From positions 413,719 through 477,718 of the forward strand of contig JAQULM010000001.1 in the NCBI GenBank assembly GCA_028718605.1: DNA of 64,000 nucleotides, written 5' to 3'. The notes below the pieces were generated by a model. That model was not told the origin of the DNA. It did no database searches and saw only the letters and a program-made list of their open reading frames with translations. Numbering within the stretch: the stretch's first letter is position 1; each line of letters begins with the position of its first letter. This DNA is from Patescibacteria group bacterium. GTDB taxonomy: Bacteria; Patescibacteriota; Patescibacteriia; UBA10025; JAHIVO01. Below, one piece after another: positions 9,820 to 29,746 of the stretch. A program made the translations under genes and the position numbers.

Positions 9820-11205
9820 TTACACGCCGAGCGTGCTATTTAAATTATTGATCGCGAGGAATTCTTCCATAAGAAGCGTCGGATGATTTTCCTGTGCGCG
9901 TCTCGTGAGTATCTGCTCAATTGACCGATTCGTGTCAATGCTCTCTCGGCCGATATCAATATAAAGTTTGAATACGGGCGCGAGTTTCCATGCGCCAACC
10001 CCCTCGCTCCGGCGCTGATATGAATCTTCTTCGAGGAGATCAATTTTCTCCAACACTTTCTCCGCGGACTCCTGTGGATTTGTGCCGAGCCTTCTAAATT
10101 CCTTCAAATCAATTTCCCCAATTTCCTCAACAGGACCGACAATGTGCATCGGTTGGCGAATATCTACCATCTGGGGACGGTCAGGCTCGATCGATGACGG
10201 GATTGGTGTGCGCTTCGGCAGCTCTTCGGGTGAACGCGCGTAAAGCGATACGGCTTCTGCGCTCATGGGTTGGACCGGCTGTGGCGCCGGTACGGCAGGC
10301 GTTTCCTCAATGGGCACTGAACGCGCTGGGGCAACTGGCTCGACAGGCAACGGAGTTACGGATTGAAGAGCAGGTGGTTTGACTGGTGCAACCTGCTGTG
10401 CCGGCTCTGGCGGGATCTGTTCGACAGAAGGAACAAATGGTTTTGGAAGTTCTTTCTTCACTTCGCCGGGTTTCGGAACAAACGCCGGTGGCGTTGGTGC
10501 AAACATGCCTCCCTGCCCGACGAGGTCCACGCCCCATTTCTTGAGGTTCGCCCGTGGTGCTTCTGCCGTTCGAGGCTGCGCGGCGACGGCGACGCCCGCC
10601 TCATGGAACACAGCTGCCCTTTGTTCCGCAAGGTTGAGCACACGATCCGCCTCGGCTGATGATAACTCTATTCCGCCAATTTTTTTCGGCCGCATGAGCA
10701 CTTCCCGCGCCTCAATGGACGTCCTGATATCACGCAGGCGCGATTCGAGTACCTTTGAAAACCTCTTTATCAAGAGATCGTCTTCGAGCCGTACGCCGCT
10801 CTCACGAAGGATTTCCTCAATGGCTGTATTGAGGGCTACGGTGGCAGCCAGCTGCGGAGCTCCGCCCATTGCTTCGAGATCACGGGCATGCTGCTCGATT
10901 TCCTCAATATCCTCCGGCTCCAAGTTGAGCGGCGCCTTCCCTGCCGACATAACGGGCATTGGCCGCGGTGCTATTGCCGCGGATGGGGCGGGTTTCTGCG
11001 GCACAAACAGAGGGGGTGTAACAGGCGGCATGGGAGGTTTCGGAAGCGGTTCCGGAGCAGGCGGCTCACGGCGGGCGGGAACCGCGGTTTTCGGTACTGT
11101 TACGTCAACGATCTGCCCGTCCTCGACTTTTTTGAATTGGCCGCTTTTATCGCGTATCAAAAAACTCTGCGATAGATCAGAATTGTTTGGATCATTCACG
11201 TCCAT
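9820..11205 (-). CDS. Pro-rich hypothetical protein (first gene of the T4SS-like operon)
   Basis: 461-aa ORF with PxxP-rich segments and a conserved-looking C-terminal ~100 aa. There is no TM and no recognisable catalytic motif. Confidence 0.45.
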   Translation of the reverse strand: MDVNDPNNSDLSQSFLIRDKSGQFKKVEDGQIVDVTVPKTAVPARREPPAPEPLPKPPMPPVTPPLFVPQKPAPSAAIAPRPMPVMSAGKAPLNLEPEDIEEIEQHARDLEAMGGAPQLAATVALNTAIEEILRESGVRLEDDLLIKRFSKVLESRLRDIRTSIEAREVLMRPKKIGGIELSSAEADRVLNLAEQRAAVFHEAGVAVAAQPRTAEAPRANLKKWGVDLVGQGGMFAPTPPAFVPKPGEVKKELPKPFVPSVEQIPPEPAQQVAPVKPPALQSVTPLPVEPVAPARSVPIEETPAVPAPQPVQPMSAEAVSLYARSPEELPKRTPIPSSIEPDRPQMVDIRQPMHIVGPVEEIGEIDLKEFRRLGTNPQESAEKVLEKIDLLEEDSYQRRSEGVGAWKLAPVFKLYIDIGRESIDTNRSIEQILTRRAQENHPTLLMEEFLAINNLNSTLGV

Positions 11206-12151
11206 GCAAGAGAGTAGTTATTGGTCTCGTTTGAGTAATATATATCTTTTTCTTCTCGATAGCCCACTCGATATCCTGAGGGCATCGATAATGCGCCTCA
11301 ATCCGCTTGCACATGCGGGCGAGCTCGACTATCTGCGAACCAGTGAGGACTTGCGCGTCCTGGAGTTTCCGGGGTAGGCGGACAGTTTTGGTGCCGGCAC
11401 CCGGTTTCCGGATAATCATTTTCTCCTGTGTCGAAACGTTAACGTCAAGAATTACTTCATCTTCTTTGTCGATAATGTACGTATCAGGGGTAATCATGCC
11501 CGATACAATCGCTTCGCCGAGGCCGAATCCTGCTTCGATAACCATTTGTTTCCGGTCCTTCGTGACCGGGTGGGCAGTGAAGCAGACCCCGGATACCTGC
11601 GAATTCACCATTTTCTGCACAACAACTGCGACGCTGACTTTTGTTTTGTGAAGTTTCCTTTCGTACCGATAGAAAATCGCCCGGGGCGTGAATAGGGATG
11701 ACCAGCAGCTTTTAACTGCCCCAAATAGCTTCTGCTGAGTAATAAATAAATATGTTTCGAGCTCGCCTGCCCAGGATGCGATTGAAGAATCCTCTGCGGT
11801 TGCCGAGGACCTGACGGCAACGTATGGGGCGCGGAGTTTTCGGAACATTTGCAAGACTTCTTTCTTGAGGTCACCCGGGAAACGGGCGTCATGAATCAAA
11901 TCGCGTATCTCATGAGAAAAACGGTCAACCGACGTAAGGTCCCGATGATTCAGGCGGTCAAGCCCTGCGTCTATCTCAACACCAATATCGGTCTCCTCGA
12001 GAAAACGTTCAAATGCAGGCGCGAGAATCACAAACCCCGGCGGTACCGGGATCCCACTCTGTACCATTTCGCCAAGATTCGCTCCTTTTCCGCCAGCGAC
12101 ACTTACACTTTTTTTTGATAATTCCGAGAAAGAAGATACGTACGTAAACAT
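11192..12151 (-). CDS. Stand-alone PEP synthase / pyruvate phosphate dikinase N-terminal ATP-grasp (PPDK_N) domain protein
   Basis: Motifs VSVAGGKGANLGEM and VAVRSSATAEDS are the PPDK_N/PEP-synthase ATP-binding signatures. The 319 aa are roughly the ATP-grasp domain alone, with no swivel or substrate domain. Confidence 0.8.
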   Translation of the reverse strand: MFTYVSSFSELSKKSVSVAGGKGANLGEMVQSGIPVPPGFVILAPAFERFLEETDIGVEIDAGLDRLNHRDLTSVDRFSHEIRDLIHDARFPGDLKKEVLQMFRKLRAPYVAVRSSATAEDSSIASWAGELETYLFITQQKLFGAVKSCWSSLFTPRAIFYRYERKLHKTKVSVAVVVQKMVNSQVSGVCFTAHPVTKDRKQMVIEAGFGLGEAIVSGMITPDTYIIDKEDEVILDVNVSTQEKMIIRKPGAGTKTVRLPRKLQDAQVLTGSQIVELARMCKRIEAHYRCPQDIEWAIEKKKIYITQTRPITTLLHGRE

Positions 12152-12311
12152 GCGATTGGTTTCAGATACGGCTCCGCAATCGAGCTTAAAAAGTCGTGTT
12201 ATTAAATGACTTTTTCTTTAATGTAAGTGGCTTCATTATAGCATAATTTTTCAAGAAAATCAAACCATCTCCCGTACGTTTCTGTAATTTATCTGGCGGC
12301 GAATGTACTTG

Positions 12312-12340: not shown

Positions 12341-12349
12341 ATCAACAAT

Positions 12350-13408
12350 ATGGCAACGCCAAACCAACAAGCCGACATACAACGTGCACGCGAATACAGC
12401 ACCGCACTTCGAGCTGATAAAGCCAAGCGAGAATCTAGAATTGCTGCACGGCTTGCCGCCACAACCAATAAAGTTGAGGGGATGAAACAGATTATCGAAC
12501 AGGAAACAGCGATGCGGGTAATGAATGAGAAAGCAAATGCGGATGATGTCATACGGGGCGCTGGCATGATGGAGCGCTTGGATGCTGACAATGCCGGGGA
12601 AGGCGGGCAGGCTGGGCAAGCGCAAAGTAAAAAAAATGAGGCAGCGCGCCGAGAAATTGCAGAAGAATTTGACCAACCCGGCGACACTGATGCTTTGGCG
12701 GAATCAGAAAACAGCGCACAAGGGCAGCATGGCGACCTCAGTAGCTTAAAAAATAAAATGCCCTCAATGCCTGTCGGCGATAGCATCCAGGTACCCCGTT
12801 CCCCGGGAGAACAAACTGGCGAGGGCGGTGGTGACGAAGAGCAAAGCCCGCCAGATGAAAATCAAGACGTGGTCCGCAAAGACCAGGAGTCGGCTACTGC
12901 CCGCCAGATGCATCTTAAGCAGACTAAGGCGCTCGCCGACAAACGGGAACAAGCGGTCGCCGACGAAGAAATCGCAGTAGCCGAGCAGGCAGAGGTTGAA
13001 GCCGCCGGTGAAGAAGCGCAAGCAACAGGGAAACCGCTAAAACCGATCCCGACGCTCCCTTTCGCCATGATGCTCGCACTCGCAATTATGAAAGATGGCG
13101 TAGATTTTTTTGATTGGGGATTTCTCGGCGTTGTGCTCAACCTCATACCGATTATGGGGATAACCATTATTGTGTTAATTACTGGCGGCTCACTGTCGAA
13201 CTTCATCAGCAAGAAAAAATGGCTCTTCGCGTCAGGCGCTGCAGTAGAATTTATCCCTATCATTGGCTTTATGCCGATCTGGACCATCACGATCATCTGG
13301 ATGTGGATTGAGGGGAAACGCCAGAAACCTGTTTCCGGACGGGTTGCTGCACGGTATACCCGCCGCATTGCGAACAGAGGTAAGTCAGCACTGCGGTTGC
13401 TTAAATGA
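12350..13408 (+). CDS. Hypothetical membrane protein (charged coiled N-terminus, C-terminal TM hairpins)
   Basis: 352-aa ORF; an E/A/Q-rich N-terminal 230 aa, then three or four TM segments; followed by an intrinsic terminator. Confidence 0.5.
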   Translation: MATPNQQADIQRAREYSTALRADKAKRESRIAARLAATTNKVEGMKQIIEQETAMRVMNEKANADDVIRGAGMMERLDADNAGEGGQAGQAQSKKNEAARREIAEEFDQPGDTDALAESENSAQGQHGDLSSLKNKMPSMPVGDSIQVPRSPGEQTGEGGGDEEQSPPDENQDVVRKDQESATARQMHLKQTKALADKREQAVADEEIAVAEQAEVEAAGEEAQATGKPLKPIPTLPFAMMLALAIMKDGVDFFDWGFLGVVLNLIPIMGITIIVLITGGSLSNFISKKKWLFASGAAVEFIPIIGFMPIWTITIIWMWIEGKRQKPVSGRVAARYTRRIANRGKSALRLLK

Positions 13409-13458
13409 TGCGGCAGTCTTCCGCATCCTGTCTATTTTAATAAAATGATATGTTCGAC

Positions 13459-13480
13459 AAACCGCACGGCGCGGTTTTTT
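13459..13480 (+). terminator. Rho-independent terminator
   Basis: AACCGC-acggc-GCGGTT stem-loop followed by TTTTTT, 50 nt after the stop of 12350..13408. Confidence 0.6.
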
Positions 13481-14412: not shown

Positions 14413-14553
14413 GCTGAGGAGAGAATACGAATGTACACTGTTTCGTAGTGAGTACGATATCCTCAATGCCAAGCAGTGTGTTTTTGTAAGTAATTGACAA
14501 TCTATCTACTGAAACCACACAACCGTCCGCCCCATGGTGGACAGGAGGAATTG
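14413..14553 (+). promoter_or_regulatory. Long 5' leader with a 5-codon uORF (MYTVS) overlapping a terminator-like hairpin, then a conserved SD-proximal hairpin
   Basis: SD GAGGAGAG, then ATG TAC ACT GTT TCG TAG (14431..14448). ACACTG (14435-40) pairs with CAGTGT (14474-79) and is followed by GTTTTTG. Downstream sits GTCCGCCCCATGGTGGACAGGAGGAATTGATG. Confidence 0.35.
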
Positions 14554-15228
14554 ATGCAATTTCTAGGAATCTGTGAAACCGCAAAACAAGTGGGGGAGTT
14601 CGTCCCGGAAACCGCGACGAACGTAAATGCCCTCACCCGGCACAGCAAATCAGTCCAGGAAGGACCGAACCGCTCCAGAACGCTCATTCCCTTGGGAATT
14701 GAGTTGTGCGCCGCCGTACGTCCTCAATACGGACACCTCGGGCTGCTCAAGGTCCTGACGACCCGATTCGGCAACCCGCTGATCAGACATAGCGAGATGA
14801 TCCGGGCCGCGCTGACCGGCTGGGAGATTCTGCATCCAACGCAATTCACGGCCGATAGCCGTATCACACTCGCCGTAAGCCTGAAGAAAATTAAGGGCGG
14901 TGCATGGTACGACGAGATGAAGAAGGCCGGCAGGTCGATCGGCGAAATGTTGACCACGGTCCACCATGAACTGACTATGCTGGACAGCCAGCCGTACGAT
15001 CAACGCATGTCCGAGATGTATGACTTCTTCACGGAAGTCGGCACCGACTGCAAATTCAGGTGGGGCTTTGGACACGAACCGGAACCTACGCTCTGCGTTC
15101 TGAAGCACAATCTCATCCCGGAGGAACACGTCGGTCTGCTCGAATGCCAGTCGTACATCGTATTCACCGATGATCAGCGGAACATCGTCGGGGTCATCAA
15201 GTTCTGCCCACCGGCTACCATCAAGTAG
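14554..15228 (+). CDS. Hypothetical protein, possibly a divergent histidine-phosphatase fold
   Basis: Start chosen at the ATG after the GGAGGA SD; contains LTRHSKS (RHG-like) and a late GFGHEPEP segment. No other recognisable motif. Confidence 0.45.
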   Translation: MQFLGICETAKQVGEFVPETATNVNALTRHSKSVQEGPNRSRTLIPLGIELCAAVRPQYGHLGLLKVLTTRFGNPLIRHSEMIRAALTGWEILHPTQFTADSRITLAVSLKKIKGGAWYDEMKKAGRSIGEMLTTVHHELTMLDSQPYDQRMSEMYDFFTEVGTDCKFRWGFGHEPEPTLCVLKHNLIPEEHVGLLECQSYIVFTDDQRNIVGVIKFCPPATIK

Positions 15229-15357: not shown

Positions 15358-16269
15358 ATGGGAGAAATGCACAATTTCGAAATATCATCCCAGTTTGAAC
15401 ATCGGGAAGGAGAAAAAGAACGGCCCAATCTGACCGTGTACCTCATGCGGCACGGCGAAACTGAAACCGACAAATCGAAACCGAACCGCGGTCTTACCGA
15501 GCATGGCCAGGAACAGGTAAGAGAAAACTTCAATGGCATCATCGACCAACTGATACAAGAAGAAGTGCCAGAATTTCGGGACTTCGACGATCCGGAAAAA
15601 CGTAAAGCTGCTGCCGTACAAGCGTTCTCGAAAGTTGAAATGCACCTCGCGGAATCCGGCACTGACCGCACCCAAGAGCAGGTTTGGCTTGAACGCGGAA
15701 TCCTCATTGACATGGGCGTGCCTCCCGAGGACCTGCATTTGCCGAAGTCAACCTACGAATGGGCAGTAAAGAACGGGAAGATCGAAGCGATGCCCGAAGA
15801 CGGCGGTCCAGGGGTCAAGCGCCGGCTTGCTGGCGTTGGCGGTATGGATAGTGCCAAAGAGTTCAGGAAAAAAATCAGCAACCCTGAATACCAGGCGCAG
15901 ATCGGCGCGACGGACGAAATTATCGCGTGGGCAAAAACGCCGGATGATGAAATCCCGGAAGGCGTTGAGACGAGGAACCAAATGGAAGCCCGCCTGCAAA
16001 GCGACCTCGGCAAAGTAGAGCACGTTGCCAGTAAACGCCTCAACGGCCGCCCGAAACGGACTGTGTATGTTGCGAATAGCCATGCCTCAATACTCACGCT
16101 TGCCGCTTCCTCAGAGTTAAACGCGCCGATTGAACAGGTCGGAGAAATTGAAAACGGGGAAGGCCTCCGCCTCGACTTCTACGGCGAGGGTAAAGCGCAC
16201 ACCGCACAGCCATTTGGAAAAAATACGGAAGCGAAATTTCAGCGACTCAGGGAACAGCCGTCGGCTTAA
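15358..16269 (+). CDS. Histidine phosphatase superfamily protein (phosphoglycerate mutase/SixA-like)
   Basis: N-terminal motif VYLMRHGETE (RHGE with the catalytic His), LTEHGQEQ, and a C-terminal second-His segment VYVANSHASIL. Confidence 0.7.
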   Translation: MGEMHNFEISSQFEHREGEKERPNLTVYLMRHGETETDKSKPNRGLTEHGQEQVRENFNGIIDQLIQEEVPEFRDFDDPEKRKAAAVQAFSKVEMHLAESGTDRTQEQVWLERGILIDMGVPPEDLHLPKSTYEWAVKNGKIEAMPEDGGPGVKRRLAGVGGMDSAKEFRKKISNPEYQAQIGATDEIIAWAKTPDDEIPEGVETRNQMEARLQSDLGKVEHVASKRLNGRPKRTVYVANSHASILTLAASSELNAPIEQVGEIENGEGLRLDFYGEGKAHTAQPFGKNTEAKFQRLREQPSA

Positions 16270-16331: not shown

Positions 16332-17852
16332 CTATTTTCTTATTCGCACCACTCCCTCGTTCCCATCAACCTCAACAATCTGCCCGTCTTTCAGAATTTT
16401 TGTTGCCATGCGCAAGCCGATAATGCCCGGGATGCCGGCTTCACGTGCTAATGTTGCCGGGTGCGAGGTAATGCCCGGCCCGCCGTCGCAAATCAAACCT
16501 GAAGCGATTGACAGGACGTGGGTAAACACCGGCGTTGCCTGGATTGTCGCGATGATGTCTCCCTTCTTTACCTTATGGAACGCGTCCGGATTAATCACAA
16601 TCTTGACCGGCCCGCGCGCGGTGCCGGGAGAAACAGGCGTACCGTACAGTGCCTTTACTTTTCTATCAATTTTAACAAAAAAATCAAAATACTGCTGTGC
16701 CTGTTTTCCCATTAACACGGCTGTCTTCCTGCGGAAGTTATGGAACACGACCAAGCGGATGCGCTCGTTTACGATTGAACTCATGTCGATGCCGTGCACG
16801 AGCATCGGCCGCACTTCCTGCGTAAGCAAATGCCTCGCCTGGCGAATCGATAGCACACCCCGTTTGGCAATCTCGATGAGGATCGGGTCGTATAAATGGA
16901 GCGTCTGGGACACGATCCACTTCCGCAGCTCCTTGTAGTAAATTGCCTCGCGCATTGTTTTGAACAGCCGCTGGTGCTTCGTGTCAATCTTCAGCGTTCG
17001 GTAAATCGCACGGACATCCCGCTCTAGTTGCTGTTCGTCGCGGATCATTTTTTTGAGCGCTGCATGTGGGTCACTGGCGAGAAGTTTTTTAAACCGTACA
17101 ATGAAATCTTCCTGGGATAAAATCGGGTCATCGTAGTCGCGCGTAATCCAGAAAAACCTGCGTACGTGCTTCATAAAAAGCGCTCGCAGGGCTGTGTCTG
17201 CCCGAATTGACTTAAGGACATTTCCGGCGTGGCGCTGCTTGAAAATTGCCCTCCAGCGGGAATTCTGTGCAATGCGCTGGCACACGGCGAGTGCTGCTTT
17301 ACGCTCCTGCCAGTTAATCATCGCGCGCTGTTCGGTGATCAGCCGGTCAATCGCCTTGCCGGCGCGGATCGGGTCTGGCTCACGGGATGCAATATACTCC
17401 CGTAAGTATTGAAAAAAGTAGTTTTCCATCGCCAACACGGGGAAATAGTGGGAATACACCTGCCGGTACCGCTTATCGTACTCCTCGTGCAGCGCCGCCA
17501 GCTTCGCATTGTGCATCGTCTTCAACGCTGCCGGCTTATTGTTTGCGCGCAGGAAGCGGTAGAACGAACGGCCAAAGGCCTTTTGCTTTTTCGCGAGTTT
17601 CATGAACAGCGCCGGGTCGGCGAGAACGCGCTTCATTACTCCCATACCCACGCGTTCATGGTCGTCCTTGTCAAAAAAAGCGTAAAAAACGTTCTCGGTA
17701 AAGAACACGATGCTCTGCTGATACGCATACCCGATCACCTGTTTCATTTCATTGCACACTGTCTCCATGGAGATATAGTTCGGAAACGGACTGACCCGCT
17801 GGCGCTGGGACAGCTGGAACCAGTGCAGTTTTTTATTTAACCGTATGTTCAT
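16332..17852 (-). CDS. PEP-utilizing-enzyme swivel (phospho-His) domain protein with a divergent helical N-terminal domain (RPH/PEP-synthase-like, lacking ATP-grasp)
   Basis: C-terminal GTPVSPGTARGPVKIV...GDIIATIQATPVFTHVLSIASGLICDGGPGITSHPATLAREAGIPGIIG is the PEP-utilizers mobile-domain signature with the catalytic His; the N-terminal ~400 aa is all-helical with no ATP-grasp motifs. Confidence 0.8.
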   Translation of the reverse strand: MNIRLNKKLHWFQLSQRQRVSPFPNYISMETVCNEMKQVIGYAYQQSIVFFTENVFYAFFDKDDHERVGMGVMKRVLADPALFMKLAKKQKAFGRSFYRFLRANNKPAALKTMHNAKLAALHEEYDKRYRQVYSHYFPVLAMENYFFQYLREYIASREPDPIRAGKAIDRLITEQRAMINWQERKAALAVCQRIAQNSRWRAIFKQRHAGNVLKSIRADTALRALFMKHVRRFFWITRDYDDPILSQEDFIVRFKKLLASDPHAALKKMIRDEQQLERDVRAIYRTLKIDTKHQRLFKTMREAIYYKELRKWIVSQTLHLYDPILIEIAKRGVLSIRQARHLLTQEVRPMLVHGIDMSSIVNERIRLVVFHNFRRKTAVLMGKQAQQYFDFFVKIDRKVKALYGTPVSPGTARGPVKIVINPDAFHKVKKGDIIATIQATPVFTHVLSIASGLICDGGPGITSHPATLAREAGIPGIIGLRMATKILKDGQIVEVDGNEGVVRIRK

Positions 17853-18454
17853 AATGCTCTCGTAATGGCACGCCGCATCTGTTTGAAGTTTTTATATAAA
17901 ATCGTGTTTACGCCCATTTTGGAGGGTTCAACCAGGTTTGCCGCTTGATCATCGATGTAAACTATCTCAGATGGCTTTACCCGAAAACGGCGACAAATGT
18001 ACGCGACGGTCTTCTTGCTCGCCTTGGGAAGGTTCAGCGACTGCGTATTGATACTGTCGTCAAAATACTTCTTGAAACCGAGCGCTTTATCAAAATACGC
18101 AAACCACGCCACCAGGTTCTTGCTCAGGATAATGCACGTGTACCCGCGATGGCGCAAGCGAGTGACGTACTGCACGACTGATCTACGAAGTTCCGTATGC
18201 CGCAAGTGCCATGCCCTCATCGCGCGCCAGTCCTGGCGCCACCCGAGTTCTCGAATTGGGCGAATCCAACCCTGGCGTTCGGTGATCTTATTTTCGGCAA
18301 TTAAGTTGAAATACTTCGTATATAAAACGTTAAAAACCGCTTGCCATGGGGTTCCGTGGATTTTCGCGAAATGCCGGCTTGTTTTTTTATGGTCACCGAT
18401 CACGGTAACGCCGTTGAAGTCAAAAATGATTAATTGTACGTGTTTCTTGTTCAT
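17849..18454 (-). CDS. HAD-fold hydrolase-like protein with non-canonical motif I (DxN)
   Basis: LIIFDFNGVTV (motif I with the second Asp replaced by Asn), motif IV-like YIDDQAANL. Its ends overlap both neighbours by 4 nt. Confidence 0.65.
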   Translation of the reverse strand: MNKKHVQLIIFDFNGVTVIGDHKKTSRHFAKIHGTPWQAVFNVLYTKYFNLIAENKITERQGWIRPIRELGWRQDWRAMRAWHLRHTELRRSVVQYVTRLRHRGYTCIILSKNLVAWFAYFDKALGFKKYFDDSINTQSLNLPKASKKTVAYICRRFRVKPSEIVYIDDQAANLVEPSKMGVNTILYKNFKQMRRAITRAL

Positions 18455-21516: not shown

Positions 21517-22107
21517 CTACGAATACTTTTTTAACAGCAACCTCCCTGCCTCGCGGATACCCTCAATGCGGTAAAAAATAAACTTGTCCTGGGTAGTGAT
21601 GCCCCACTCAAGTATAACATTTTTAAGCGCCAACTTCCGCACTGCCTGCAGTACTGTCGTACGCTGCCCCGGCGTAAGCGTTGCGCGGTCGCCAACGGTG
21701 CTGGCGAGGCGGAGCTTTGCGTCATAATAGTACGCGGCATCTACCTTGCCGTGCCGCATCAGGTCAACAACAGCGCCCTTCACTGTTTCGATAACGGCAC
21801 GGTGCTTTTCAATGAGCAAGGTGCCCGCGCGCTTCCACTTCCACGACGGGTAGACAACGAAAAGTGCCCTGCCACCAAGCTGCTTTTGGAATTTATCGAT
21901 CGTCGAAGGCACCTGGTTTTTTGGCAGCCAATTCGTATAGACATTTTTCCATGCGCCCTTGGTAACGGCAACGGTACGGATCGTCCAACCAACGTAGTCT
22001 TTGATACCGAAAAACTTCTCCAAGTCGCGCGACGTACGGACAAATTCCCACTCCGGGTGGGGCAGTTTTGCGCGGTCAATGAGTTGGAGGCCATGGAGGA
22101 TCGTCAT
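21517..22107 (-). CDS. Hypothetical protein in the swivel-protein operon
   Basis: 196-aa ORF tightly packed between paralog 3 and the second HAD gene; no recognisable motif. Confidence 0.4.
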   Translation of the reverse strand: MTILHGLQLIDRAKLPHPEWEFVRTSRDLEKFFGIKDYVGWTIRTVAVTKGAWKNVYTNWLPKNQVPSTIDKFQKQLGGRALFVVYPSWKWKRAGTLLIEKHRAVIETVKGAVVDLMRHGKVDAAYYYDAKLRLASTVGDRATLTPGQRTTVLQAVRKLALKNVILEWGITTQDKFIFYRIEGIREAGRLLLKKYS

Positions 22108-22727
22108 ATGAGCTGCCGTAATTCGTCAATCTCCCGAAATACGTAGTCCGGTTTTTCTTTCAGCAATTCCTGCTCGCGCTTATAGCCCCACGTGACAGCG
22201 CCAGTCAGGATTCCCTCCCGCTTCCCAACTTTAACTTCATGCGCGGTGTCGCCGATAAATATCGTTTCCTGGCGGTTCAGATGGTGCCGCTGGATCGCAC
22301 TTTCAATAACCCGAGCTTTGTCATGAATATCATAAACGATCTCATTGAAAACGCGCTCGAGGCCAAACTTTTTCAATTCCGGAAAAATCGTTTCTTTGAT
22401 GTCGCCACTGATGACGATCATGTATTTTCCGGCGTGGTGCAATGCACGAATACTATCGATAATGCCGGGAAAAGGGTTCGCAGGGGGCCGGCGCAGTATT
22501 TCCCGATGAAAAATCGCCGACTCCTCCTCGAGCGTCAGGTTGGGCAGGTATTTTTGGTAAAAAAGGATATACGGCTGGTCCCATGCTTCACGAAATTCCT
22601 CGAGTGAAATCCGCGGGGCTTTGTAGGTATCAAAAACAACCATCGCGACATCATAGACGTTCTGGATGTTGTCGCTGATGACCCCCGCCCAGTCGAAAAT
22701 GATATTCTGAACCTTCGGTACGCTCAT
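22104..22727 (-). CDS. HAD-fold hydrolase-like protein with non-canonical motif I (DxA)
   Basis: NIIFDWAGVISD (second Asp replaced by Ala), motif IV-like IFIGDTAHEV; 4-nt overlaps with both neighbours. Confidence 0.65.
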   Translation of the reverse strand: MSVPKVQNIIFDWAGVISDNIQNVYDVAMVVFDTYKAPRISLEEFREAWDQPYILFYQKYLPNLTLEEESAIFHREILRRPPANPFPGIIDSIRALHHAGKYMIVISGDIKETIFPELKKFGLERVFNEIVYDIHDKARVIESAIQRHHLNRQETIFIGDTAHEVKVGKREGILTGAVTWGYKREQELLKEKPDYVFREIDELRQLI

Positions 22728-24373
22728 AATTTTTTCACGATCCCTTTTGTCGCATCGACCTCCACCGTATCACCGTCCTGGAAGACCTTTGTCGCAATTT
22801 TCGTGCCGATGACGCAGGGAATTTTTAACTCACGGGACACAATCGCCGCATGCGACGTGACGCCTCCCTGCTCCGTGACAATCGCCGCGGCTTTTTTCAT
22901 TGCCGGCACGATGTCGGGGTCAGTAGCGATTGAAACAAGAATGTCCCCTTTCTGCATCTTTGCCATGTCTTTTGGCCGTATGATAATTCGTACAACGCCG
23001 GTTGCCCTGCCGACGCAACCGACCTGGCCGGAAATTTCACGCACGCCGGTAGCTACGGAACGAGTTGCAGTCCGCGCGAGGCGTTGCGCCTTGGCACCAC
23101 TAAAAACCCCCTCGGAGCCACGTTCGTAATAATACACGGCAAGCGCTGGGCGCTTGCGCAACGCTGCACGGTTCAACCTCCCGCGCATGAGTGCGGCGTG
23201 CACCTCGTCGCGCAGCATGAAACGCACCTCTCGTAATGAAAGCTTCAGCCGCCGCGCGATTTCCTGCACCACCGGCTGCATCCGGTAAATGGCGTAGATC
23301 TGGGCATAGCGCCGGTAAATCTTGGTTACCATGAAATCGCCCCACTCGCTGAACACCGAGCGCCACGGATTGCGGATTTTGAGCTTCCGCACCAGCGCGG
23401 CTTGTTTTATTTTTTGGTTGTTAAATTCCGTCCGTATCCGCGCCAGCTCGCGGCTGGGATTCACGCCCGTGCCGATCAGCTTTACGAGCTCTTTGAGGTA
23501 ATGCTCGAATGTATACACCCCTTCCTTGCCGATCCACATGAACTTCACGTAGAAATACCGGCGGTAGTGCTGCTCGATGCGCTTCAGGATCGATGGCTTG
23601 ATAATATCTTTAATTCGTTCCGCGCGCTCTTCGAGCAGCCGTTCGTACTCCGGCGTGTGGGTTTTGAAGCCGTACGGCGCCGCGTCCTGCTCAAGGAATG
23701 ATTTATACAAATTGCGGAACACGCGTTGCTGTTTCCGGTCGCGGCAGATGCCTGCGGCCAGTCCCAGGAATTGCTCCCGTTCAATCTGTATCAGCGATTT
23801 TAAGCGCGGCTGCGTTAAAATGACGAGGCACTCATTGACTTTTTTTTCAGGGACGAGCCTACGCAAATACCCCTTGAGCCGGTTTGTCAGGTTGTCGTGG
23901 AACATGTCGGCTGCAACGGGAATCCAGCCCCACTGGTAGTACTGCGTGTGCACTGCGTCATGGCGCCGGTACCAATCCCACAGCTGGCGGTTGGAAAGGC
24001 GCTCGAGGTGGTCTTCGGGAATTGTGCCTGCGAACCTACGCAGTGTATCAGACCATCGGACGATGCCGCGGTTCACCTGACGGGCGAAGGACGGATTGCT
24101 GACGATGCGCTCGGCAATATGCTCACCAACGCGGTTCGAATCCTCCTCGCCATAATAAAACCACAGGTGGTACCCCCGGAACACCGCGAGCAATTTTTTA
24201 TACCGGGCACCAGCCGGGTGTGCAAATTCGTTGACAAAGCAGGACTGCCAGATCTGCGCGAAGAACGGGTCCATGTCCGGGATGTCCTCGGCAAGTATCC
24301 ACGGGTCTGTATCCGCAAGGTAATTGAGCCGCTTTTTTGCCATAGTATTAGCGTAAGTATACCTATTTTTCAA
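22724..24373 (-). CDS. PEP-utilizing-enzyme swivel domain protein (paralog 4)
   Basis: C-terminal GQVGCVGRATGVVRII...GDILVSIATDPDIVPAMKKAAAIVTEQGGVTSHAAIVSRELKIPCVIG; N-terminus MAKKRLNYLADTDPWILAEDIPDMDPFFAQIW. Confidence 0.8.
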   Translation of the reverse strand: MKNRYTYANTMAKKRLNYLADTDPWILAEDIPDMDPFFAQIWQSCFVNEFAHPAGARYKKLLAVFRGYHLWFYYGEEDSNRVGEHIAERIVSNPSFARQVNRGIVRWSDTLRRFAGTIPEDHLERLSNRQLWDWYRRHDAVHTQYYQWGWIPVAADMFHDNLTNRLKGYLRRLVPEKKVNECLVILTQPRLKSLIQIEREQFLGLAAGICRDRKQQRVFRNLYKSFLEQDAAPYGFKTHTPEYERLLEERAERIKDIIKPSILKRIEQHYRRYFYVKFMWIGKEGVYTFEHYLKELVKLIGTGVNPSRELARIRTEFNNQKIKQAALVRKLKIRNPWRSVFSEWGDFMVTKIYRRYAQIYAIYRMQPVVQEIARRLKLSLREVRFMLRDEVHAALMRGRLNRAALRKRPALAVYYYERGSEGVFSGAKAQRLARTATRSVATGVREISGQVGCVGRATGVVRIIIRPKDMAKMQKGDILVSIATDPDIVPAMKKAAAIVTEQGGVTSHAAIVSRELKIPCVIGTKIATKVFQDGDTVEVDATKGIVKKL

Positions 24374-24466
24374 TCACTTCTGCAAATAAAAATCCACCCA
24401 AAAACCTTCGATAGATATCCATTGAAACCATACCCGGATTATGCCGCCGTTTGAAAAATGGTACCC

Positions 24467-25115: not shown

Positions 25116-25382
25116 TTAAAACCTCCTGTAAACTTTAAAAGGATTCTGTGAAGCAATATGCTCGCCAACGCGGTTTGAATCCTCGTGGCCATAATAAAAC
25201 CACAGGTGATACCCACGGAATATCGATACCAACTTTTGATACCGAACGCCTGACGGTTTAATAAACTCATTCACGAAGCAGGACTGCCAGACCTGCGCAA
25301 AAAACGGGTCCATATCCGGGATGTCCTCGGCAAGCATCCACGGGTCTGTATCATGCAGGTATTTCAATGGCTTTTGAGGCAT
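25116..25382 (-). pseudogene. Truncated duplicate of the 5' end of swivel paralog 4 (gene fragment)
   Basis: The translation MPQKPLKYLHDTDPWMLAEDIPDMDPFFAQVWQSCFVNEF...YHLWFYYGHEDSNRVGEHIA aligns with residues ~10-95 of 22724..24373, and nt 25140..25382 are ~85% identical to 24110..24373. The ORF ends after 88 codons. Confidence 0.7.
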
Positions 25383-25463
25383 AGAATTACCGTTAGTATA
25401 CTCGGTTTAACTGCACATTCGCAAATCAAAAACAGCCCCTAAAAAGGCCTTCCGCTGAAATAA

Positions 25464-26993
25464 TTACTTAATCCTGCGGACGATCCCCTCATTGGCATTC
25501 ACCTCAACCCGATCGCCGTCTTTGAATATGTCGGTCGCCACCTTTGTACCAATAACGCAGGGGATATCAAACTCGCGGGACACAACAGCGGCATGGCTGC
25601 AGATGCCACCCTCATTGGTAACAATCGCCCCTGCTTTCCTGCACGCGGTAATAATCTCTGGCCTGGTCTGGCCCGCGACGAGGATGTCACCCTTTTTCAT
25701 CTCGTCAATTTGTGGGGCGAGCGGCTTGTCGTACGTGATAACCTTCACGCGACCGACTGTCCTGCCCGGCGAACCAATTTCCCCATGCACCTCGCCGGTT
25801 CTTTCAACGCGCGAGTGCTCGCGGACGTACCGAACCAAGTTGCGGGCTTTCAAGCCGGTGTATAGTTCCAGCTTGAAATTGTGCAGCCAGAGTACGTACA
25901 GCGTTTTCCGTTTGCGGAGATCGGCGGCTGGCAATTGCTTACCGTGGATGAGGCAATCAACAATCTCTGTGGTAAGGCAGAACTGGGAGAGCTCCGGATT
26001 GATCTTCGACCGGCGCGCAGCCTCGTGGTACAGGCGCATGCCAAAGTGCATTCCCTGTGTCCAGCAAAACCGGATGCAGAAGCGGGTGTACGCGTACTCC
26101 TGGAGCATCGCAACCAACCGTCGGTAGGTTGGACTCACCCGGTACTGCGCCAGTAAACGTTTATTTTCACGAATTACCGTGCGCTGGCGCGACTCCAGCT
26201 CATGGAGTTTGGATTTCAACTCACGTGGCTGCTGGTGGAGCATGGTTTGGAGATTTCGGACACAGTCGAGCACGGTGTACGGCTGGAGGTTGCTGTCCGC
26301 GGTGAGCCATTCGTACTGCTGCTGGTGCACTGCAATTTTCTGGAATAGGCCCGGGTACTTCTTTTTAATCACCGCTGCGGCGCGCTGCGGACCAATGTCT
26401 TTTAATTTTTTAATAAAAGCACCATGCTTTTGCGCCTCCAGCACAATTCGTATCCACTCAATTTCTTCTTGCTCGAATTCGAACCGCTTCACCGGCCGGA
26501 CGAGCGAGCGGAGCACATCCTCACGCTTCACGGTGTTTGAAACCTTCCCGGCCAAGTACTGGCGCAGCTCCTGCTCGACGCCGATCGTGTACCAGTTGAC
26601 CGAGGTCTGGAACCGGCCGTAGACATTTATCAACGTTTTCAAGTATCGCTGCGCGAACAAACCAAGCTGACGAGTCGGTACGTTTGCGACGTCCAACTTT
26701 TTCAATTCGCTAATCTCACGGTACATCCGCCGCAGGACGCGCCACGTTTCAACGAGATCGGCCCTGACGAACGGTGGATTGGTCAGGTTGCGGTAGCCGA
26801 CTGTCGCGATGCGTGGCAGGTCCGCCTCGTCCATGAACGCCTGGATCTTGTTCCGCTCAGAAAGAAAAATGAAGTCGCGCGACCCGAAGCCGTGGATCTT
26901 TTGGTTCCACAGAGTATTGCCCCAGGCAGCGATCTCCGTGCGGAGCATGTAGTTTCGTACCTCGAACATCCGTTTGTACCGTTGTGCTGCCAT
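25464..26993 (-). CDS. PEP-utilizing-enzyme swivel domain protein (paralog 5)
   Basis: C-terminal GEIGSPGRTVGRVKVI...GDILVAGQTRPEIITACRKAGAIVTNEGGICSHAAVVSREFDIPCVIG. Confidence 0.8.
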   Translation of the reverse strand: MAAQRYKRMFEVRNYMLRTEIAAWGNTLWNQKIHGFGSRDFIFLSERNKIQAFMDEADLPRIATVGYRNLTNPPFVRADLVETWRVLRRMYREISELKKLDVANVPTRQLGLFAQRYLKTLINVYGRFQTSVNWYTIGVEQELRQYLAGKVSNTVKREDVLRSLVRPVKRFEFEQEEIEWIRIVLEAQKHGAFIKKLKDIGPQRAAAVIKKKYPGLFQKIAVHQQQYEWLTADSNLQPYTVLDCVRNLQTMLHQQPRELKSKLHELESRQRTVIRENKRLLAQYRVSPTYRRLVAMLQEYAYTRFCIRFCWTQGMHFGMRLYHEAARRSKINPELSQFCLTTEIVDCLIHGKQLPAADLRKRKTLYVLWLHNFKLELYTGLKARNLVRYVREHSRVERTGEVHGEIGSPGRTVGRVKVITYDKPLAPQIDEMKKGDILVAGQTRPEIITACRKAGAIVTNEGGICSHAAVVSREFDIPCVIGTKVATDIFKDGDRVEVNANEGIVRRIK

Positions 26994-27877
26994 TACGGAG
27001 CCTCCTCATACCGATGCGCCTCTATGTACGCCTGGCTTAGACGTTTAAGTTCCTCCATATCGATGCGCCACTTCAAGCCCTTCAGGCGCTCGATATCTCC
27101 GAACCGAGGCACGACGGTTTTCTCACCCTTCTGGTCAATCGTGACGTCCAGCTCGACGAACTCAACGGGTTTGAACGATCCGCCGATCTCCTCTACGCCC
27201 TGGAACCCCCGGCGCTCCTCGCCCGTCTCGGGGTCCTCGATAATCAGACACTTACTCAGGAAGCAGGTGAGGGGCGTATTGTGAGATACGTCCACGAGCA
27301 CTGCCCGAGAACCGCTCTTGAGGTGATCAGCCATCCGTATCTGCGTATCGACAAAGTGCCCGATATTACTCGCTGCCTCTTCCGTATACACGGGATCCTG
27401 CAGCGCCTTGTTGCACAGGAAATCCTCGGCTTCCTGCATAGCCCGCAGTTGCACGTCTGGCGCCAACGAATCAAACTGCGGGTAGTGTTCCTCGAGGTAC
27501 TGCTTACCATACTTTACCCACCCGCCCTCCGGGAAACTCCGTATTGAAGAGTAATCAAGCTCTTTCCGCTGGCGTGGGTCGAGCTTGATGAACGTTTCAT
27601 CGGAGGCACTCCCCACAATGTTATCGCGCGTCCGGTCTGCGCGCTGCTGTCCGCTCGCATACCCCTTGAGCCCAGACTGCTCTGTGGCAGTGAACGAACG
27701 ACCGTAGTCCTTTGTGGACTGTTCACCGCGAGGGCTCAGCAAACCGTACATCTGACCTGGTTCTTTATCACCATGCCTTCCGAGCCTGATTATCAGCTGC
27801 ACGTCACGACCACGCTCCCTCGCCTCGCGATCAGGAGAGCTATTCATCCCGTATTCTATTGGTCCTCGTTCAACCAT
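26993..27877 (-). CDS. Histidine phosphatase superfamily protein
   Basis: LIIRLGRHGDKEPGQ...LSPRGEQ (RHG motif plus the LSxxGxxQ motif), a later VLVDVSHNTPL second-His segment; a 1-nt TAATG overlap with paralog 5. Confidence 0.6.
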   Translation of the reverse strand: MVERGPIEYGMNSSPDREARERGRDVQLIIRLGRHGDKEPGQMYGLLSPRGEQSTKDYGRSFTATEQSGLKGYASGQQRADRTRDNIVGSASDETFIKLDPRQRKELDYSSIRSFPEGGWVKYGKQYLEEHYPQFDSLAPDVQLRAMQEAEDFLCNKALQDPVYTEEAASNIGHFVDTQIRMADHLKSGSRAVLVDVSHNTPLTCFLSKCLIIEDPETGEERRGFQGVEEIGGSFKPVEFVELDVTIDQKGEKTVVPRFGDIERLKGLKWRIDMEELKRLSQAYIEAHRYEEAP

Positions 27878-28180
27878 ACAAATGATCTCCCTATTCCCTT
27901 ATTATACTTTCTCGCTCTTTCCGTTCAATACTGGCGAGGTACCGCCCGATGACAGGGAAAAATCTGCGGTTGTACTTCCGCGTAACTGACAGTGAGAGCG
28001 TACCGGCGGCAGCGGCGCACGATAAAGCGTCCTAACGGCGTGGTTATCGCCCAACACTCGTTGATTAGTCCGGTGGGAATGTACCGGTACGATCGAACGC
28101 GGCCAAGGCCGTAGCGCACCGCGACCGTGTTGAGGAAGGATTGTGCAGACCGTGCTATGTGAAATGGCATACACGGGTAT

Positions 28181-29746
28181 TTAGAGTTTTCTAATAATCC
28201 CCTCGTCCGCATTCACCTCAACCTTATCACCATCCTTCAAAACCTTCGCCGCTCCCGCGACACCGACAATGCATGGCGTGCGCAACTCGCGCGCAACGAT
28301 CGCGGTATGGCACGTGAGGCCGCCTGATTCAGAAACTAACGCTGCTGCCTTCTTCATCGCGGGCACGAGATTCGGGTTCGTATTATGCGCAACCATGATA
28401 TCCCCCTTTCGCATTTTCGCCATTTCATCTGGTATATTTATGACGCGCACGGTACCGACGGCAGTACCCGGGCATGCCGTCGTGCCGGTCAGGATATCAG
28501 AGTTTTTAAACGATACCCGCTCCATCGTGATCCCTCGGAGGAACGCGCGCGCCTCCGCCCCGGTATAGACGATGTACTGCGTGCGGTCAGCGTACGCGAC
28601 TGCGAATTTCCTCCGCGCATCGAGGGTTTTTACATCAACAACGCCGCTCTTCAGCGCCTTCTCGATTTCCCATCCGTTCATTGCCCACACCTGCGGCAGT
28701 GAAAGGCCAAGGCGCCCGCCAATCTCCTTGAACAGCGACTCATAGCAATACATGCCGTGGTACAGCGCATCTTTGCGGAAATCTTTGATAAAAACCATTG
28801 CCTGGGCAAGTGCAATGAGCTGTTCGAGGCGCGGGGTTAGCGCCAGCTCCCGGATGATCTGCCGCTGGCGTGCCATAAGCTGCGTCCGATCCCTAAAAAT
28901 TTTCCTCAGCACCTGGCGGGGATCATCACCGTTGTGGAAAAGCTCCTGCCAACGCCGAATGTACTCTTCGATCTTCGTTGCAGGGCCATGGTACTGGAAC
29001 GCAAGCCAGCAGTACTTCCGATGGTGCCGTTGTATCCGCAAGTATAAAACAGGATTGAATTGTTTAAGATGGGCAATAATTTTTACAGGATCAGCTGCTT
29101 TTTGGAATAGTTTCCTGACTTCTGCGTGGCGCCTCAGTACAATCGCTATGCGGAGGAAGTCACGCTCCTCTTTCGCGACTAAACTCTCCCGCCGCGGCGT
29201 GGTCAACACGCTGAAAATTTCCGGCAAGGACAGGGTGCTCCCCGTCTGCTCCAGATGCGCAGAAAGTTCCTGCCAAATGGCTTTCGTGACGCGCTCCTTC
29301 TCGGCGTCAGCATGCCAGCTTACGGACGCACCAATGCCATGTGCCAGCCGATGATAATGCATCGCTGCCTTATACAGGGCGATAAGCTGGCGATTTGTCA
29401 TGTGGCGGTGGGGGCTCCGCTTCAGTACTTTCGAAACCTGCATAAATTTCCGCGACCAGTTTTCCACCTGATTGATAACACGCAGCGCCCACCGCGGCCG
29501 TGTTATCATTTTATTCGCCAAAAATTCAGCTTGCGCGTCAAATTCGTGCCGAAGGTAATGCATCCTCCCGAAATCCCCGTCGAACCGCGTGAAGTACCGC
29601 GTCACCTGGCCGCCCAAGCCTCGCTTCGGCCACTGCTGGATAAAAAAACAAATCGGCTCGGACAGCATGAAAATCGTCGTCTCGGGAATTTCAGCGGGCA
29701 TCATCCATGCATTGTTGTGCTTTGCTCGAGGCATACTTTCTTGCAT
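28181..29746 (-). CDS. PEP-utilizing-enzyme swivel domain protein (paralog 6)
   Basis: C-terminal GTTACPGTAVGTVRVI...GDIMVAHNTNPNLVPAMKKAAALVSESGGLTCHTAIVARELRTPCIVG. Confidence 0.8.
   Translation of the reverse strand: MQESMPRAKHNNAWMMPAEIPETTIFMLSEPICFFIQQWPKRGLGGQVTRYFTRFDGDFGRMHYLRHEFDAQAEFLANKMITRPRWALRVINQVENWSRKFMQVSKVLKRSPHRHMTNRQLIALYKAAMHYHRLAHGIGASVSWHADAEKERVTKAIWQELSAHLEQTGSTLSLPEIFSVLTTPRRESLVAKEERDFLRIAIVLRRHAEVRKLFQKAADPVKIIAHLKQFNPVLYLRIQRHHRKYCWLAFQYHGPATKIEEYIRRWQELFHNGDDPRQVLRKIFRDRTQLMARQRQIIRELALTPRLEQLIALAQAMVFIKDFRKDALYHGMYCYESLFKEIGGRLGLSLPQVWAMNGWEIEKALKSGVVDVKTLDARRKFAVAYADRTQYIVYTGAEARAFLRGITMERVSFKNSDILTGTTACPGTAVGTVRVINIPDEMAKMRKGDIMVAHNTNPNLVPAMKKAAALVSESGGLTCHTAIVARELRTPCIVGVAGAAKVLKDGDKVEVNADEGIIRKL

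Follow-up and report, generated by a model that had tools for sequence, protein, structure and literature searches.

Can one ATP-grasp subunit charge a whole set of phosphohistidine carriers, each equipped with a substrate-binding domain of its own? The question is raised by a locus in a Patescibacteria group bacterium (GenBank assembly GCA_028718605.1, contig JAQULM010000001.1, positions 413,719 to 477,718), a stretch of 64,000 nucleotides that is called the window below. Between positions 11192 and 29746 of the window, a gene for a stand-alone ATP-grasp protein (AG) is found together with six genes for paralogous proteins that carry a swivelling histidine domain (S1 to S6), and with genes for HAD-fold proteins and for proteins with an RHG motif. 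A prediction made earlier from the sequence alone held that these genes form a split, combinatorial relative of phosphoenolpyruvate (PEP) synthase and rifampin phosphotransferase (RPH), in which AG serves the diversified swivel proteins in trans; the sequence features it listed were all found where it had placed them or within a few codons. Our analysis makes it fairly probable that the locus encodes a hub-and-spoke version, specific to Patescibacteria, of a two-component small-molecule dikinase, with AG charging several swivel partners.

AG (11192..12151, minus strand, 319 amino acids (aa)) is encoded by the first gene of an operon for a type IV secretion system (T4SS) and is a canonical ATP-grasp protein that stands by itself. 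PPDK_N (PF01326) is its sole Pfam domain (E-value 3e-101, residues 18-314), and it retains the motifs GGKGANL, VAVRSSATAEDS and DIEW...QTRP; GGKGANL, VRSS and DIEW...QTRP are conserved across the AG family. Read by motif, the Lys of GGKGANL and the Arg of VRSS would be the equivalents of Lys22 and Arg117 of RPH-Lm. The NCBIfam models of PEP synthase, RPH, PigC and RedH align with AG over their first ~315-340 positions only and stay far under every cutoff (336 against 598 for PEP synthase, 300 bits against 999 for the RPH model NF041857). Among proteins of known structure, AG matched PEP synthase (8A8E, 254 bits), RPH (218 bits) and HpeI (9GOJ, 178 bits).

Could AG be a truncated pseudogene of ppsA? 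A search of 5.8 billion proteins argues against this: the matches listed include at least 120 homologs of 310-350 aa (most of them 312-320 aa) that contain PF01326 only and are 60-76% identical to AG, and because a family of such uniform length is conserved, the truncated-pseudogene explanation was rejected. Wherever an organism name is given for a listed homolog it is, without exception, Patescibacteria, Kerfeld-, Buchanan- or Kuenenbacteria, and the pairwise identity in a sample of 14 family members is 56-83%. Judged by these homologs, AG is a conserved family within the candidate phyla radiation (CPR; Patescibacteria), and the view that it carries PPDK_N and nothing else is upheld.

The six swivel proteins are all encoded on the minus strand: S1 (16332..17852, 506 aa, the product of the last gene of a tight seven-gene operon), S2 (18451..19974, 507 aa), S3 (19979..21511, 510 aa), S4 (22724..24343, 539 aa), S5 (25464..26993, 509 aa) and S6 (28181..29746, 521 aa). 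Each of them contains one C-terminal PEP-utilizers mobile domain (PF00391), with E-values from 3e-15 to 2e-26 (1.5e-24 for S2 and S6, 3e-25 for S3, 2.3e-26 for S4 and 9.5e-22 for S5; the domain lies at residues 429-500 in S1), and the motif of the catalytic His, G-G-x-[TC]-[SC]-H, is present in all six, as had been predicted (GITSHPA in S1, GGLTCHAA in S2, GGITSHAA in S3, GGICSHAA in S5). BLAST comparisons reveal that they are paralogs along their whole length, with local alignments 21-38% identical; when aligned by MAFFT, they share 16-23% identity over the ~400 residues of the N-terminal part and 33-58% over the swivel domain. Two of the starts deserve comment. S2 has an alternative upstream ATG at 20034, which would give a protein of 527 aa, and public gene calls disagree on which one is used. 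The open reading frame (ORF) of S4 reaches a TTG at 24373, and its start is probably the ATG at 24343, as inferred from a duplicated 5' region. This duplicate of ~250 bp (25116..25400, minus strand, downstream of S5) is 83% identical in DNA sequence to positions 24080-24400, i.e. the 5' end of S4 with its upstream region, and contains an 88-aa ORF (25116-25382) that matches the hidden Markov model of the N-terminal domain. Going by the sequence, it is the leftover of a seventh swivel copy and evidence of recent duplication or recombination within the array.

Is an ATP-grasp hidden in the diverged N-terminal domains? For S6, the AlphaFold2 model made from an alignment of 44 sequences is of high confidence (predicted local distance difference test (pLDDT) score 93.4, predicted template modelling score 0.89). 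In a Foldseek search its top PDB matches were the RPH-Lm structures 5FBU, 5FBT and 5HV1 (E-values 6e-15 to 1e-14 over ~560-580 columns; template modelling score, normalised by the query, 0.57-0.59), and the match spans the rifampin-binding and swivel domains. According to the model, the N-terminal domain of the paralogs is a mostly helical domain of the rifampin-binding type, and a hidden ATP-grasp was rejected on the strength of the model and the Foldseek match; the predicted lack of ATP-grasp in strongly diverged N-terminal domains is thereby borne out. In a profile alignment, the family covers RPH from residue ~514 through the C-terminus. NCBIfam models of the complete enzymes score the paralogs far under their cutoffs (RPH: 50-73 bits, and 52-73 bits for the model NF041857, against 999; PEP synthase: 78-121 against 598), PRK08296-type models align to the swivel part alone, and the PEP/pyruvate-binding TIM barrel (PEP-utilizers_C, PF02896) had no Pfam match in any window ORF scanned.

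The acceptor site offers a further comparison. In RPH the phosphate that is being transferred is bound by the residues Arg666-Glu667-x-x-Lys670, of which Arg666 and Glu667 are indispensable for the second phosphotransfer (PMC4844700). A profile sequence alignment, not a structural superposition, places on them the family motif K-[DE]-F-R-K (Lys321, Asp322 and Lys325 in S6). In this alignment a basic residue (Lys or Arg) occupies the position of Arg666 in five of the six paralogs and that of Lys670 in all of them, and over the 44 sequences of the family Lys321, Arg324 and Lys325 are at least 90% conserved. The conserved basic residues at the positions of Arg666 and Lys670 may be taken as indirect support for ATP-dependent phosphorylation of small molecules.

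A dikinase split in this manner has precedents. Phenylphosphate synthase PpsAB from Thauera, CreHI from Corynebacterium and HpeHI from Rhodococcus are homologous two-component dikinases; HpeI is a stand-alone ATP-grasp protein with a crystal structure (PDB 9GOJ), HpeH combines a rifampin-binding-like domain with a swivel domain, and HpeHI and PpsAB provide direct biochemical precedent for action in trans (PMC12167813). As far as the split is concerned, the original prediction was therefore mistaken in supposing that such an architecture had not been described. The window system shares with these enzymes the separate ATP-grasp polypeptide and a partner consisting of a rifampin-binding-like domain and a C-terminal swivel domain with the His in GGxT[SC]H, presumably also the mechanism that leads from ATP through pyrophosphohistidine and phosphohistidine to the substrate, and the two components of the known enzymes need no stable complex (PMC12167813). 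It differs from them in organisation: HpeHI, CreHI and PpsAB are encoded by adjacent 1:1 gene pairs in aromatic catabolic clusters, whereas the window has one AG gene for six swivel genes, places AG in a T4SS operon, adds a second ATP-grasp-fold protein (u196, see below) and HAD partners or fusions, and belongs to a type confined to Patescibacteria among the named homologs. AG is not obviously an ortholog of HpeI, as it scores higher against PEP synthase and RPH than against 9GOJ.

The system can also be compared with the single-chain enzymes of the superfamily. RPH-Lm (5FBS, 5FBT, 5FBU, 5HV1) is the best structural match of the paralogs and has the same order of a substrate-binding domain followed by a C-terminal swivel-His domain, but it is one polypeptide of ~865 aa, whereas in the window the ATP-grasp is split off. 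PpsA and PPDK have homologous ATP-grasp and swivel domains, and the best sequence matches listed for AG are N-terminal domains of PEP synthases, at 42-50% identity; these enzymes possess a PEP/pyruvate TIM barrel and a central swivel domain, whereas the window cluster has no barrel, a C-terminal swivel domain and a second substrate domain of another fold. When genome contigs were scanned with AG, the matches listed were canonical PEP synthases of 750-977 aa only, which share the generic motif KGANLGEM. The prodiginine ligases PigC and RedH belong to the same superfamily, and their NCBIfam alignments extend into the central domain (residues 98-504 of S1 to 457-877 of RedH), but they are single polypeptides encoded in pigment clusters and the paralogs score far under their cutoffs. 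As PigC and RedH illustrate, a scaffold of this kind can also prepare a carbonyl or enol oxygen for a condensation reaction and does not serve only to make stable phosphoesters. An analogy for the one-to-many arrangement itself is the pair FakA and multiple FakB, where a single catalytic partner that uses the nucleotide works with several paralogous proteins that bind the substrate, in the salvage of host-derived molecules. It is an analogy only: the folds and chemistry are unrelated and no phosphohistidine carrier is involved.

Is the association of AG with several swivel genes conserved? In the following, L-numbers denote the genome loci compared and P-numbers the representative proteins of the swivel family. 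A profile of the N-terminal domains of the six paralogs found only PF00391-bearing proteins of ~480-525 aa, whose named members come from Patescibacteria, Parcubacteria, Veblen- or Magasanikbacteria; in an exhaustive search of 1.84 billion representatives, the family comprises 4448 clusters at 50% identity with E-values of 1e-3 or lower, 623 of them at 1e-30 or lower. All 11 genomes whose flank is long enough have a swivel gene no more than 10 kb from AG, so the expected co-occurrence across relatives holds, and the number of swivel genes that accompany one AG gene varies from one to at least ten. The contig DAIENG010000002.1 (L004 and L088) encodes one AG, ten swivel-domain proteins (one of them HAD-fused), an aminotransferase, an APH-type kinase and two His_Phos_1-type proteins. 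AG is accompanied by four swivel genes and a HAD gene in L090, by four and u196 in L094, by three in L095, and by four with a HAD gene and hp303 in L109, while in L107 (Kuenenbacteria) it is directly followed by two. A Magasanikbacteria-type contig (L006) carries at least ten swivel genes in tandem beside a gene for a VirD4-like coupling protein.

Four of the six window paralogs have orthologs at 43-61% identity in other genomes: S1 in L097 and L100 (59-61%, with the synteny of HAD-S1 and hp303-u244 kept) and, as a HAD-fused protein, in L088; S4 in L089 (57%) and L004 (43%); S5 in L088 (50%); and S6 in L006 and L004 (47-52%) and across many CPR bins (47-59%). As these values far exceed the 16-23% found between the N-terminal domains of the paralogs, the duplications would be old and each copy maintained, which points to distinct and stable specificities of the paralogs and not to an arms-race array. 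Fusions were surveyed by hmmsearch with local profiles over the 146 best representatives retrieved. P0273 (829 aa; context L112) has the unsplit order of RPH, i.e. AG, N-terminal domain and swivel domain; P0263 reads AG-x-swivel-Nterm-swivel; P0168 (2309 aa) combines four swivel units with AG; and ~18 of the 146 proteins have two to four tandem units of N-terminal and swivel domains. A domain of the HAD201 type (see below) is fused N-terminally to the swivel protein in P0254 (705 aa), which has the same length and domain order as the 705-aa gene product of L088, and C-terminally in P0189 (721 aa). The existence of these fusions ties both AG and the HAD proteins functionally to the swivel family.

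Several features of the swivel family are mentioned here for completeness. The longest fusions (P0166, P0168, P0169, P0170 and others; 950-2309 aa, two to four tandem units, one with an embedded ATP-grasp) could be either true polyproteins or artefacts of gene calling or assembly. A shorter class of swivel proteins (~343-380 aa), whose N-terminal part is recognised marginally or not at all by the N-terminal-domain profile, occurs in L004 (17412-18497), L006 (8916-10001), L107 (10997-12028) and L110 (7255-8394), but not in the window. Genes for IS200-type Y1 transposases lie within or beside swivel arrays in L088 (3596-4180) and L110 (10649-11197).

In the window, the genes S4-HAD207-u196-S3-S2-HAD201-S1 form one tight seven-gene unit, as indicated by ATGA overlaps at S4/HAD207, HAD207/u196, S2/HAD201 and HAD201/S1 and by gaps of 4-5 nt at u196/S3 and S3/S2; at the junction of S5 and the further gene u294 there is a TAATG. 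Translational coupling through ATGA and TAATG junctions, another element of the original prediction, is thus present in the sequence. HAD201 (17849..18454, minus strand, Pfam Hydrolase/HAD_2, overlapped on both sides) and HAD207 (22104..22727, minus strand, HAD_2, E-value 1.6e-19) pass the Pfam thresholds and keep the nucleophilic Asp of motif I, and in both of them the usual Asp at D+2 is replaced, by Asn in HAD201 (DFNGV) and by Ala in HAD207 (DWAGV). Such a replacement is typical of HAD proteins that handle good leaving groups or take phosphate from high-energy donors, and is a lead only. By their sequences HAD201 and HAD207 are secure as members of the HAD fold, and ordinary phosphomonoesterase chemistry is not assured.

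The other half of the postulated dephosphorylation arm, a set of two to four histidine phosphatases, fared less well than the two HAD genes. The best candidate is hp303 (15358..16269, plus strand, divergent from S1), which is probably a histidine-phosphatase-superfamily protein: its His_Phos_1 match (E-value 1.5e-5, 25.2 bits against a cutoff of 21.7) is short and covers only the RHG region (residues 27-56), Arg31-His32-Gly33 and His242 are invariant across five homologs, and a homolog takes the matching position beside the S1 ortholog in L088, L097, L100 and L109. For u294 (26993..27877, minus strand), which carries the RHG motif at residue 34 and an SH motif further on, and has one homolog adjoining swivel genes, in L095, the histidine-phosphatase fold is possible and unproven; it is likewise possible for u244 (14494..15228, plus strand), a conserved protein with an invariant RH motif and with homologs next to hp303 in L088, L097, L100 (two copies) and L109. 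Neither u294 nor u244 has a Pfam match, lenient thresholds included, PDB profile searches with hp303 and u244 returned no match, and for hp303, u244, u294 and the neighbouring u274 a search for this fold by lenient Pfam thresholds, hhalign among the families and PDB profiles gave nothing significant; u294 and u244 possess the RH[GS] motif only and u274 lacks it.

One further member of the operon departs from the expected picture of a single ATP-grasp in the island. u196 (21517..22107, minus strand, 196 aa, between HAD207 and S3) has no Pfam match even at E-values up to 10, and belongs to a family of ~195-aa proteins with 58 homologs at 35-69% identity, the source names of which are all of the Patescibacteria type or plain 'bacterium'. 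According to its AlphaFold2 model (pLDDT 95), u196 is a cryptic, minimal ATP-grasp fold; the assignment rests on the predicted structure, as profile-profile comparison with the AG family by hhalign gave a local match of 15 residues only, the VIEAxxG segment. By eye, the GGKGANL loop with its Lys and the helical insert are missing, the segments WTIRT, VIExxKG and LEW...YRxE resemble VAVRSS, VIEAGFG and IEW...QTRP, and a counterpart of IPVPPGFV is also kept. In L090 and L094, homologs of u196 adjoin swivel genes; another, in the complete Nomurabacteria genome CP060223, follows three swivel genes and has an overlap of 4 nt with the last one, and AG is not found within 10 kb; in L111 a more distant homolog stands alone amid housekeeping genes.

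How would such a system work? In the scheme we propose, AG would bind ATP, the swivel His of each partner would dock on AG in trans and be pyrophosphorylated on it by the beta-phosphate, and the gamma-phosphate would be hydrolysed. The swivel domain would then return to its own N-terminal domain and pass the phosphate to a hydroxyl (or an enol or carbonyl oxygen) of the bound small molecule, the products being X-P, AMP and Pi. Each paralog would act on a different substrate, as suggested by N-terminal domains that are so diverged from one another and yet, in four of six cases, have orthologs at 43-61% identity. AG family members share 56-83% identity, as against 16-23% between the N-terminal domains of the paralogs, which fits one hub with many spokes. 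The HAD partners would belong to this pathway too, with the phosphorylated product or the phosphohistidine carrier as their target, and u196 would either bind nucleotide as an alternative partner or, without catalysis, serve some of the swivel proteins as a docking subunit. As to the biological role, we suggest with low confidence that the system traps or activates several host-derived metabolites and is expressed together with the T4SS as an apparatus of host interaction; this is the most speculative step. We favour it because a core locus keeps the orthogroups conserved, the organisms are host-dependent, HpeHI has been proposed to be a scavenging system (PMC12167813), and genes of the salvage type occur nearby. 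The latter include a nucleoside phosphorylase in L004, phosphoribosyl pyrophosphate synthases and a nucleoside phosphorylase in L107, and, in the neighbourhood of L108, genes for PfkB, inositol monophosphatase, a S6PP-type HAD, a phosphoribosyltransferase and a LDcluster4-domain protein.

Several observations weigh against the scheme. The nearest swivel gene is separated from AG by 4.2 kb and four genes on the opposite strand, and AG belongs to the transcription unit of the T4SS, not to the swivel operon. With two ATP-grasp-type proteins in the island, the notion of one hub for six may have to give way to two hubs or to a hub and an adaptor, and given u196, AG may not be the partner of all six swivel proteins. 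In the profile alignment, an acidic residue at the position of Glu667 of RPH is present in S1 and S6 only and missing in the four other paralogs, so that some of them may employ a different chemistry at the acceptor or serve purely as carriers. There would seem to be little point in a kinase that is translationally coupled, or even fused, to an enzyme of a phosphatase fold if the two worked on one and the same group. The count of AG covers the window, and more ATP-grasp copies or a complete PpsA could be encoded elsewhere in the genome. Finally, the case for a salvage role consists entirely of lifestyle arguments and of nucleotide or sugar-phosphate salvage genes in some neighbourhoods.

The position of AG in a T4SS operon requires a closer look. 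The operon (2030..11205, minus strand, delineated from Pfam matches and gene calls) lies downstream of AG and is co-directional with it; the AG, swivel, u196 and HAD genes all share this direction, in a region that continues into the operon. AG overlaps by 14 nt the next gene, u461 (9820-11205, minus strand, no Pfam match), which is followed on the same strand by PrgI (9380-9814), a TraC-like gene (8674-9420) and VirB4 (6767-8668); two T4SS-pilin-domain proteins and a SLT hydrolase are also encoded in the operon, after which comes RadA (620-1966). The T4SS gene set of the window (SLT and T4SS-pilin, VirB4, TraC-like and PrgI) is of the monoderm type. The order AG-u461-PrgI-TraC-VirB4 also occurs in L089, L090, L093, L094, L095, L097, L100, L108 and L109, and in 10 of the 12 AG-bearing genomes seen AG is the first gene of the T4SS operon, with start and stop codons overlapping or abutting. 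Of these genomes, seven were reached via AG rather than u461, and the linkage is present in five of the seven. L088 and L107 have AG and swivel genes with no T4SS nearby; conversely, the T4SS loci L092, L101 and L105, which have more distant u461 homologs, contain neither AG nor swivel genes within 10 kb. In T4SS loci without AG, genes similar to u453 are found upstream of u461, directly in L099 and with one opposite-strand gene between them in L092. The u453 gene of the window is found beyond the array, on its far side (29847..33225, minus strand, together with u676; neither has a Pfam match), so the array is embedded in a T4SS-associated region of one subclade. The protein u461 itself is Pro-rich, has homologs of ~450-530 aa with a conserved C-terminal part of ~130 residues (FRRLG...EK.DLLEE), and always precedes PrgI in these operons; it is an uncharacterised T4SS component of the CPR.

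These data have to be set against other functions that the locus could have. The proximity of the secretion genes could mean that the swivel proteins, with or without AG, are cargo or effectors of the T4SS, or that the system phosphorylates a T4SS component or a transported substrate. Diverged paralog arrays beside secretion systems are typical of effectors, T4SS-associated genes flank the array on both sides, the L006 array adjoins a VirD4-like coupling protein, and AG heads the T4SS operon in most of the genomes, including five of the seven reached through AG homologs. We nevertheless judge a secretion-linked function unlikely: the linkage is confined to one subclade, it is broken in both directions by the loci described above, and conserved orthogroups and unsplit, enzyme-like fusions look metabolic. 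A similarly small chance is given to a battery for inactivating xenobiotics or antibiotics, in which the paralogs would be resistance kinases similar to RPH, each directed at another toxic small molecule from the host or the community, and all would share the ATP-grasp. Such a battery would be in keeping with RPH as the closest solved structure, with the strong divergence of the substrate domains and with the counting of rph-like genes in CPR 'resistomes' (PMC8651080), but resistance genes would be expected to be patchier than paralogs whose orthologs are held at 43-61% identity across habitats in a core chromosomal locus, the NCBIfam RPH scores are far under the cutoff, and a coupled or fused HAD would reverse the inactivating phosphorylation if it acted on the product.

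A phosphorelay or regulatory system is a further alternative, which we consider distinctly improbable. In it the swivel His would be charged by AG and give up its phosphate to the HAD Asp or to the RHG-motif proteins, these acting as acceptors or phosphohistidine phosphatases, and the swivel proteins would regulate partner enzymes and not phosphorylate metabolites. The motif I of both HAD proteins, without the D+2 Asp, fits substrates or donors with good leaving groups, fusions join the HAD domain to either end of swivel proteins, and SixA, a phosphohistidine phosphatase, is a member of the histidine-phosphatase superfamily. VadK, a histidine kinase derived from PPDK, demonstrates that relatives of PPDK can turn into regulatory autokinases (PMC13400623). 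The missing equivalent of Glu667 in four paralogs would also be easier to understand. Against this stand a rifampin-binding-like domain and basic acceptor-site residues kept family-wide, which argue for a bound small-molecule acceptor, the lack of support for protein partners and the weakness of the histidine-phosphatase assignments. The two-component architecture and fold shared with PpsAB, CreHI and HpeHI might finally suggest an ordinary catabolic set of dikinases for phenol, cresol or hydroxyacetophenone. This is very unlikely: no aromatic-catabolic gene, carboxylase or other, was found among the window ORFs of at least 150 aa scanned or in the related loci, the sequence of AG does not resemble HpeI more than it does PEP synthase or RPH, and PRK08296-type models match the swivel part only. 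Patescibacteria, moreover, are not known to have such pathways.

We thus return to the hub-and-spoke dikinase as the preferred explanation. A wider version of it, which we regard as doubtful, would be a lineage-specific phosphoryl-distribution network of ABY1/Paceibacteria-type Patescibacteria, in which the slowly evolving AG hub and u196, devoid of the Lys loop, would charge 4-12 swivel-His carriers, be co-transcribed with the T4SS and activate or trap host-derived molecules, with a possible relay from phosphohistidine to the HAD Asp in the fused forms. If true, it would be the first biochemical route to explain how biosynthetically minimal epibionts turn scavenged compounds into usable phosphorylated intermediates.

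In the open-access literature searched we found no account of a one-to-many organisation of dikinases or of these CPR-restricted, CPR-expanded arrays, nor of a cryptic minimal ATP-grasp, of HAD-swivel fusions or of a linkage of the hub gene with the T4SS operon. The class of mechanism is known; the one-to-many arrangement and its setting appear to be undescribed. Patescibacteria account for a large part of bacterial diversity; they are host-dependent and devoid of most biosynthetic capacity, and very little of the gene content specific to their lineage has been explained biochemically. In the swivel family one may see a multiplexed form of an enzyme mechanism that is well understood, and the family so offers a testable biochemical handle on the 'dark matter' of the CPR; the identities of the substrates would reveal which molecules the symbionts take from their hosts. 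For enzymology, this would be the first one-to-many two-component dikinase and a possible source of modular ATP-driven phosphorylation catalysts.

The wider setting of the locus is chromosomal. The flanks of the window contain core genes (RecG, RadA, KsgA, Sua5 and LeuRS) as well as genes for a M23/LysM peptidase and a two-component system. A survey of Patescibacteria places the T4SS locus of the class ABY1 together with recG and radA, and in the cultivated Saccharibacterium Ca. Southlakia epibionticum the T4SS has been linked to epibiotic growth (PMC12102498); PPDK_N or PEP-utilizers genes are not reported in this study of T4SS neighbourhoods or in its supplements. The layout of the window matches the ABY1 arrangement, hence we are dealing with the conserved T4SS region of a CPR chromosome and not with a mobile island. 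Cargo of an integrative conjugative element or plasmid, which PrgI and VirB4 might suggest, was rejected in view of the core-gene flanks, of the origin of the sequence from a Patescibacteria metagenome-assembled genome and of the chromosomal layout of the CPR T4SS (PMC12102498). Anti-phage defence was also discarded, as PADLOC gave no meaningful match.

Between AG and u244 the plus strand encodes two proteins without Pfam matches, u352 (12350-13408) and u274 (13450-14274). The N-terminal half of u352 is long, acidic and of low complexity, and its C-terminal part, judged by eye, is hydrophobic and probably membrane-spanning; weak matches to u352 are found among genes of T4SS loci (L090, L092 and L100), e.g. 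at 14738-15904 in L100, downstream of VirB4. In L088 (9392-9874) and L109 (8780-9274 and 9412-9834), small proteins with the RapZ C-terminal domain (PF22740) are encoded between the u244-like gene and AG, the position taken in the window by u274 and u352. On the other side of the array, directly upstream of the T4SS-associated genes, there are two giant ORFs on the minus strand, 33255-39503 (2082 aa, no Pfam match) and 39529-50298 (3589 aa, with CBM_4_9 and dockerin domains), whose products are probably surface or adhesion proteins for host contact. Further along, the leucyl-tRNA synthetase (54036-57212, minus strand, 1058 aa) shows a match to Ham1p_like, a family of ITPases/XTPases, at residues 245-386, a stretch that belongs to the catalytic domain and is located upstream of the editing domain; a nucleotide-pyrophosphatase-like insert is unusual for a LeuRS.

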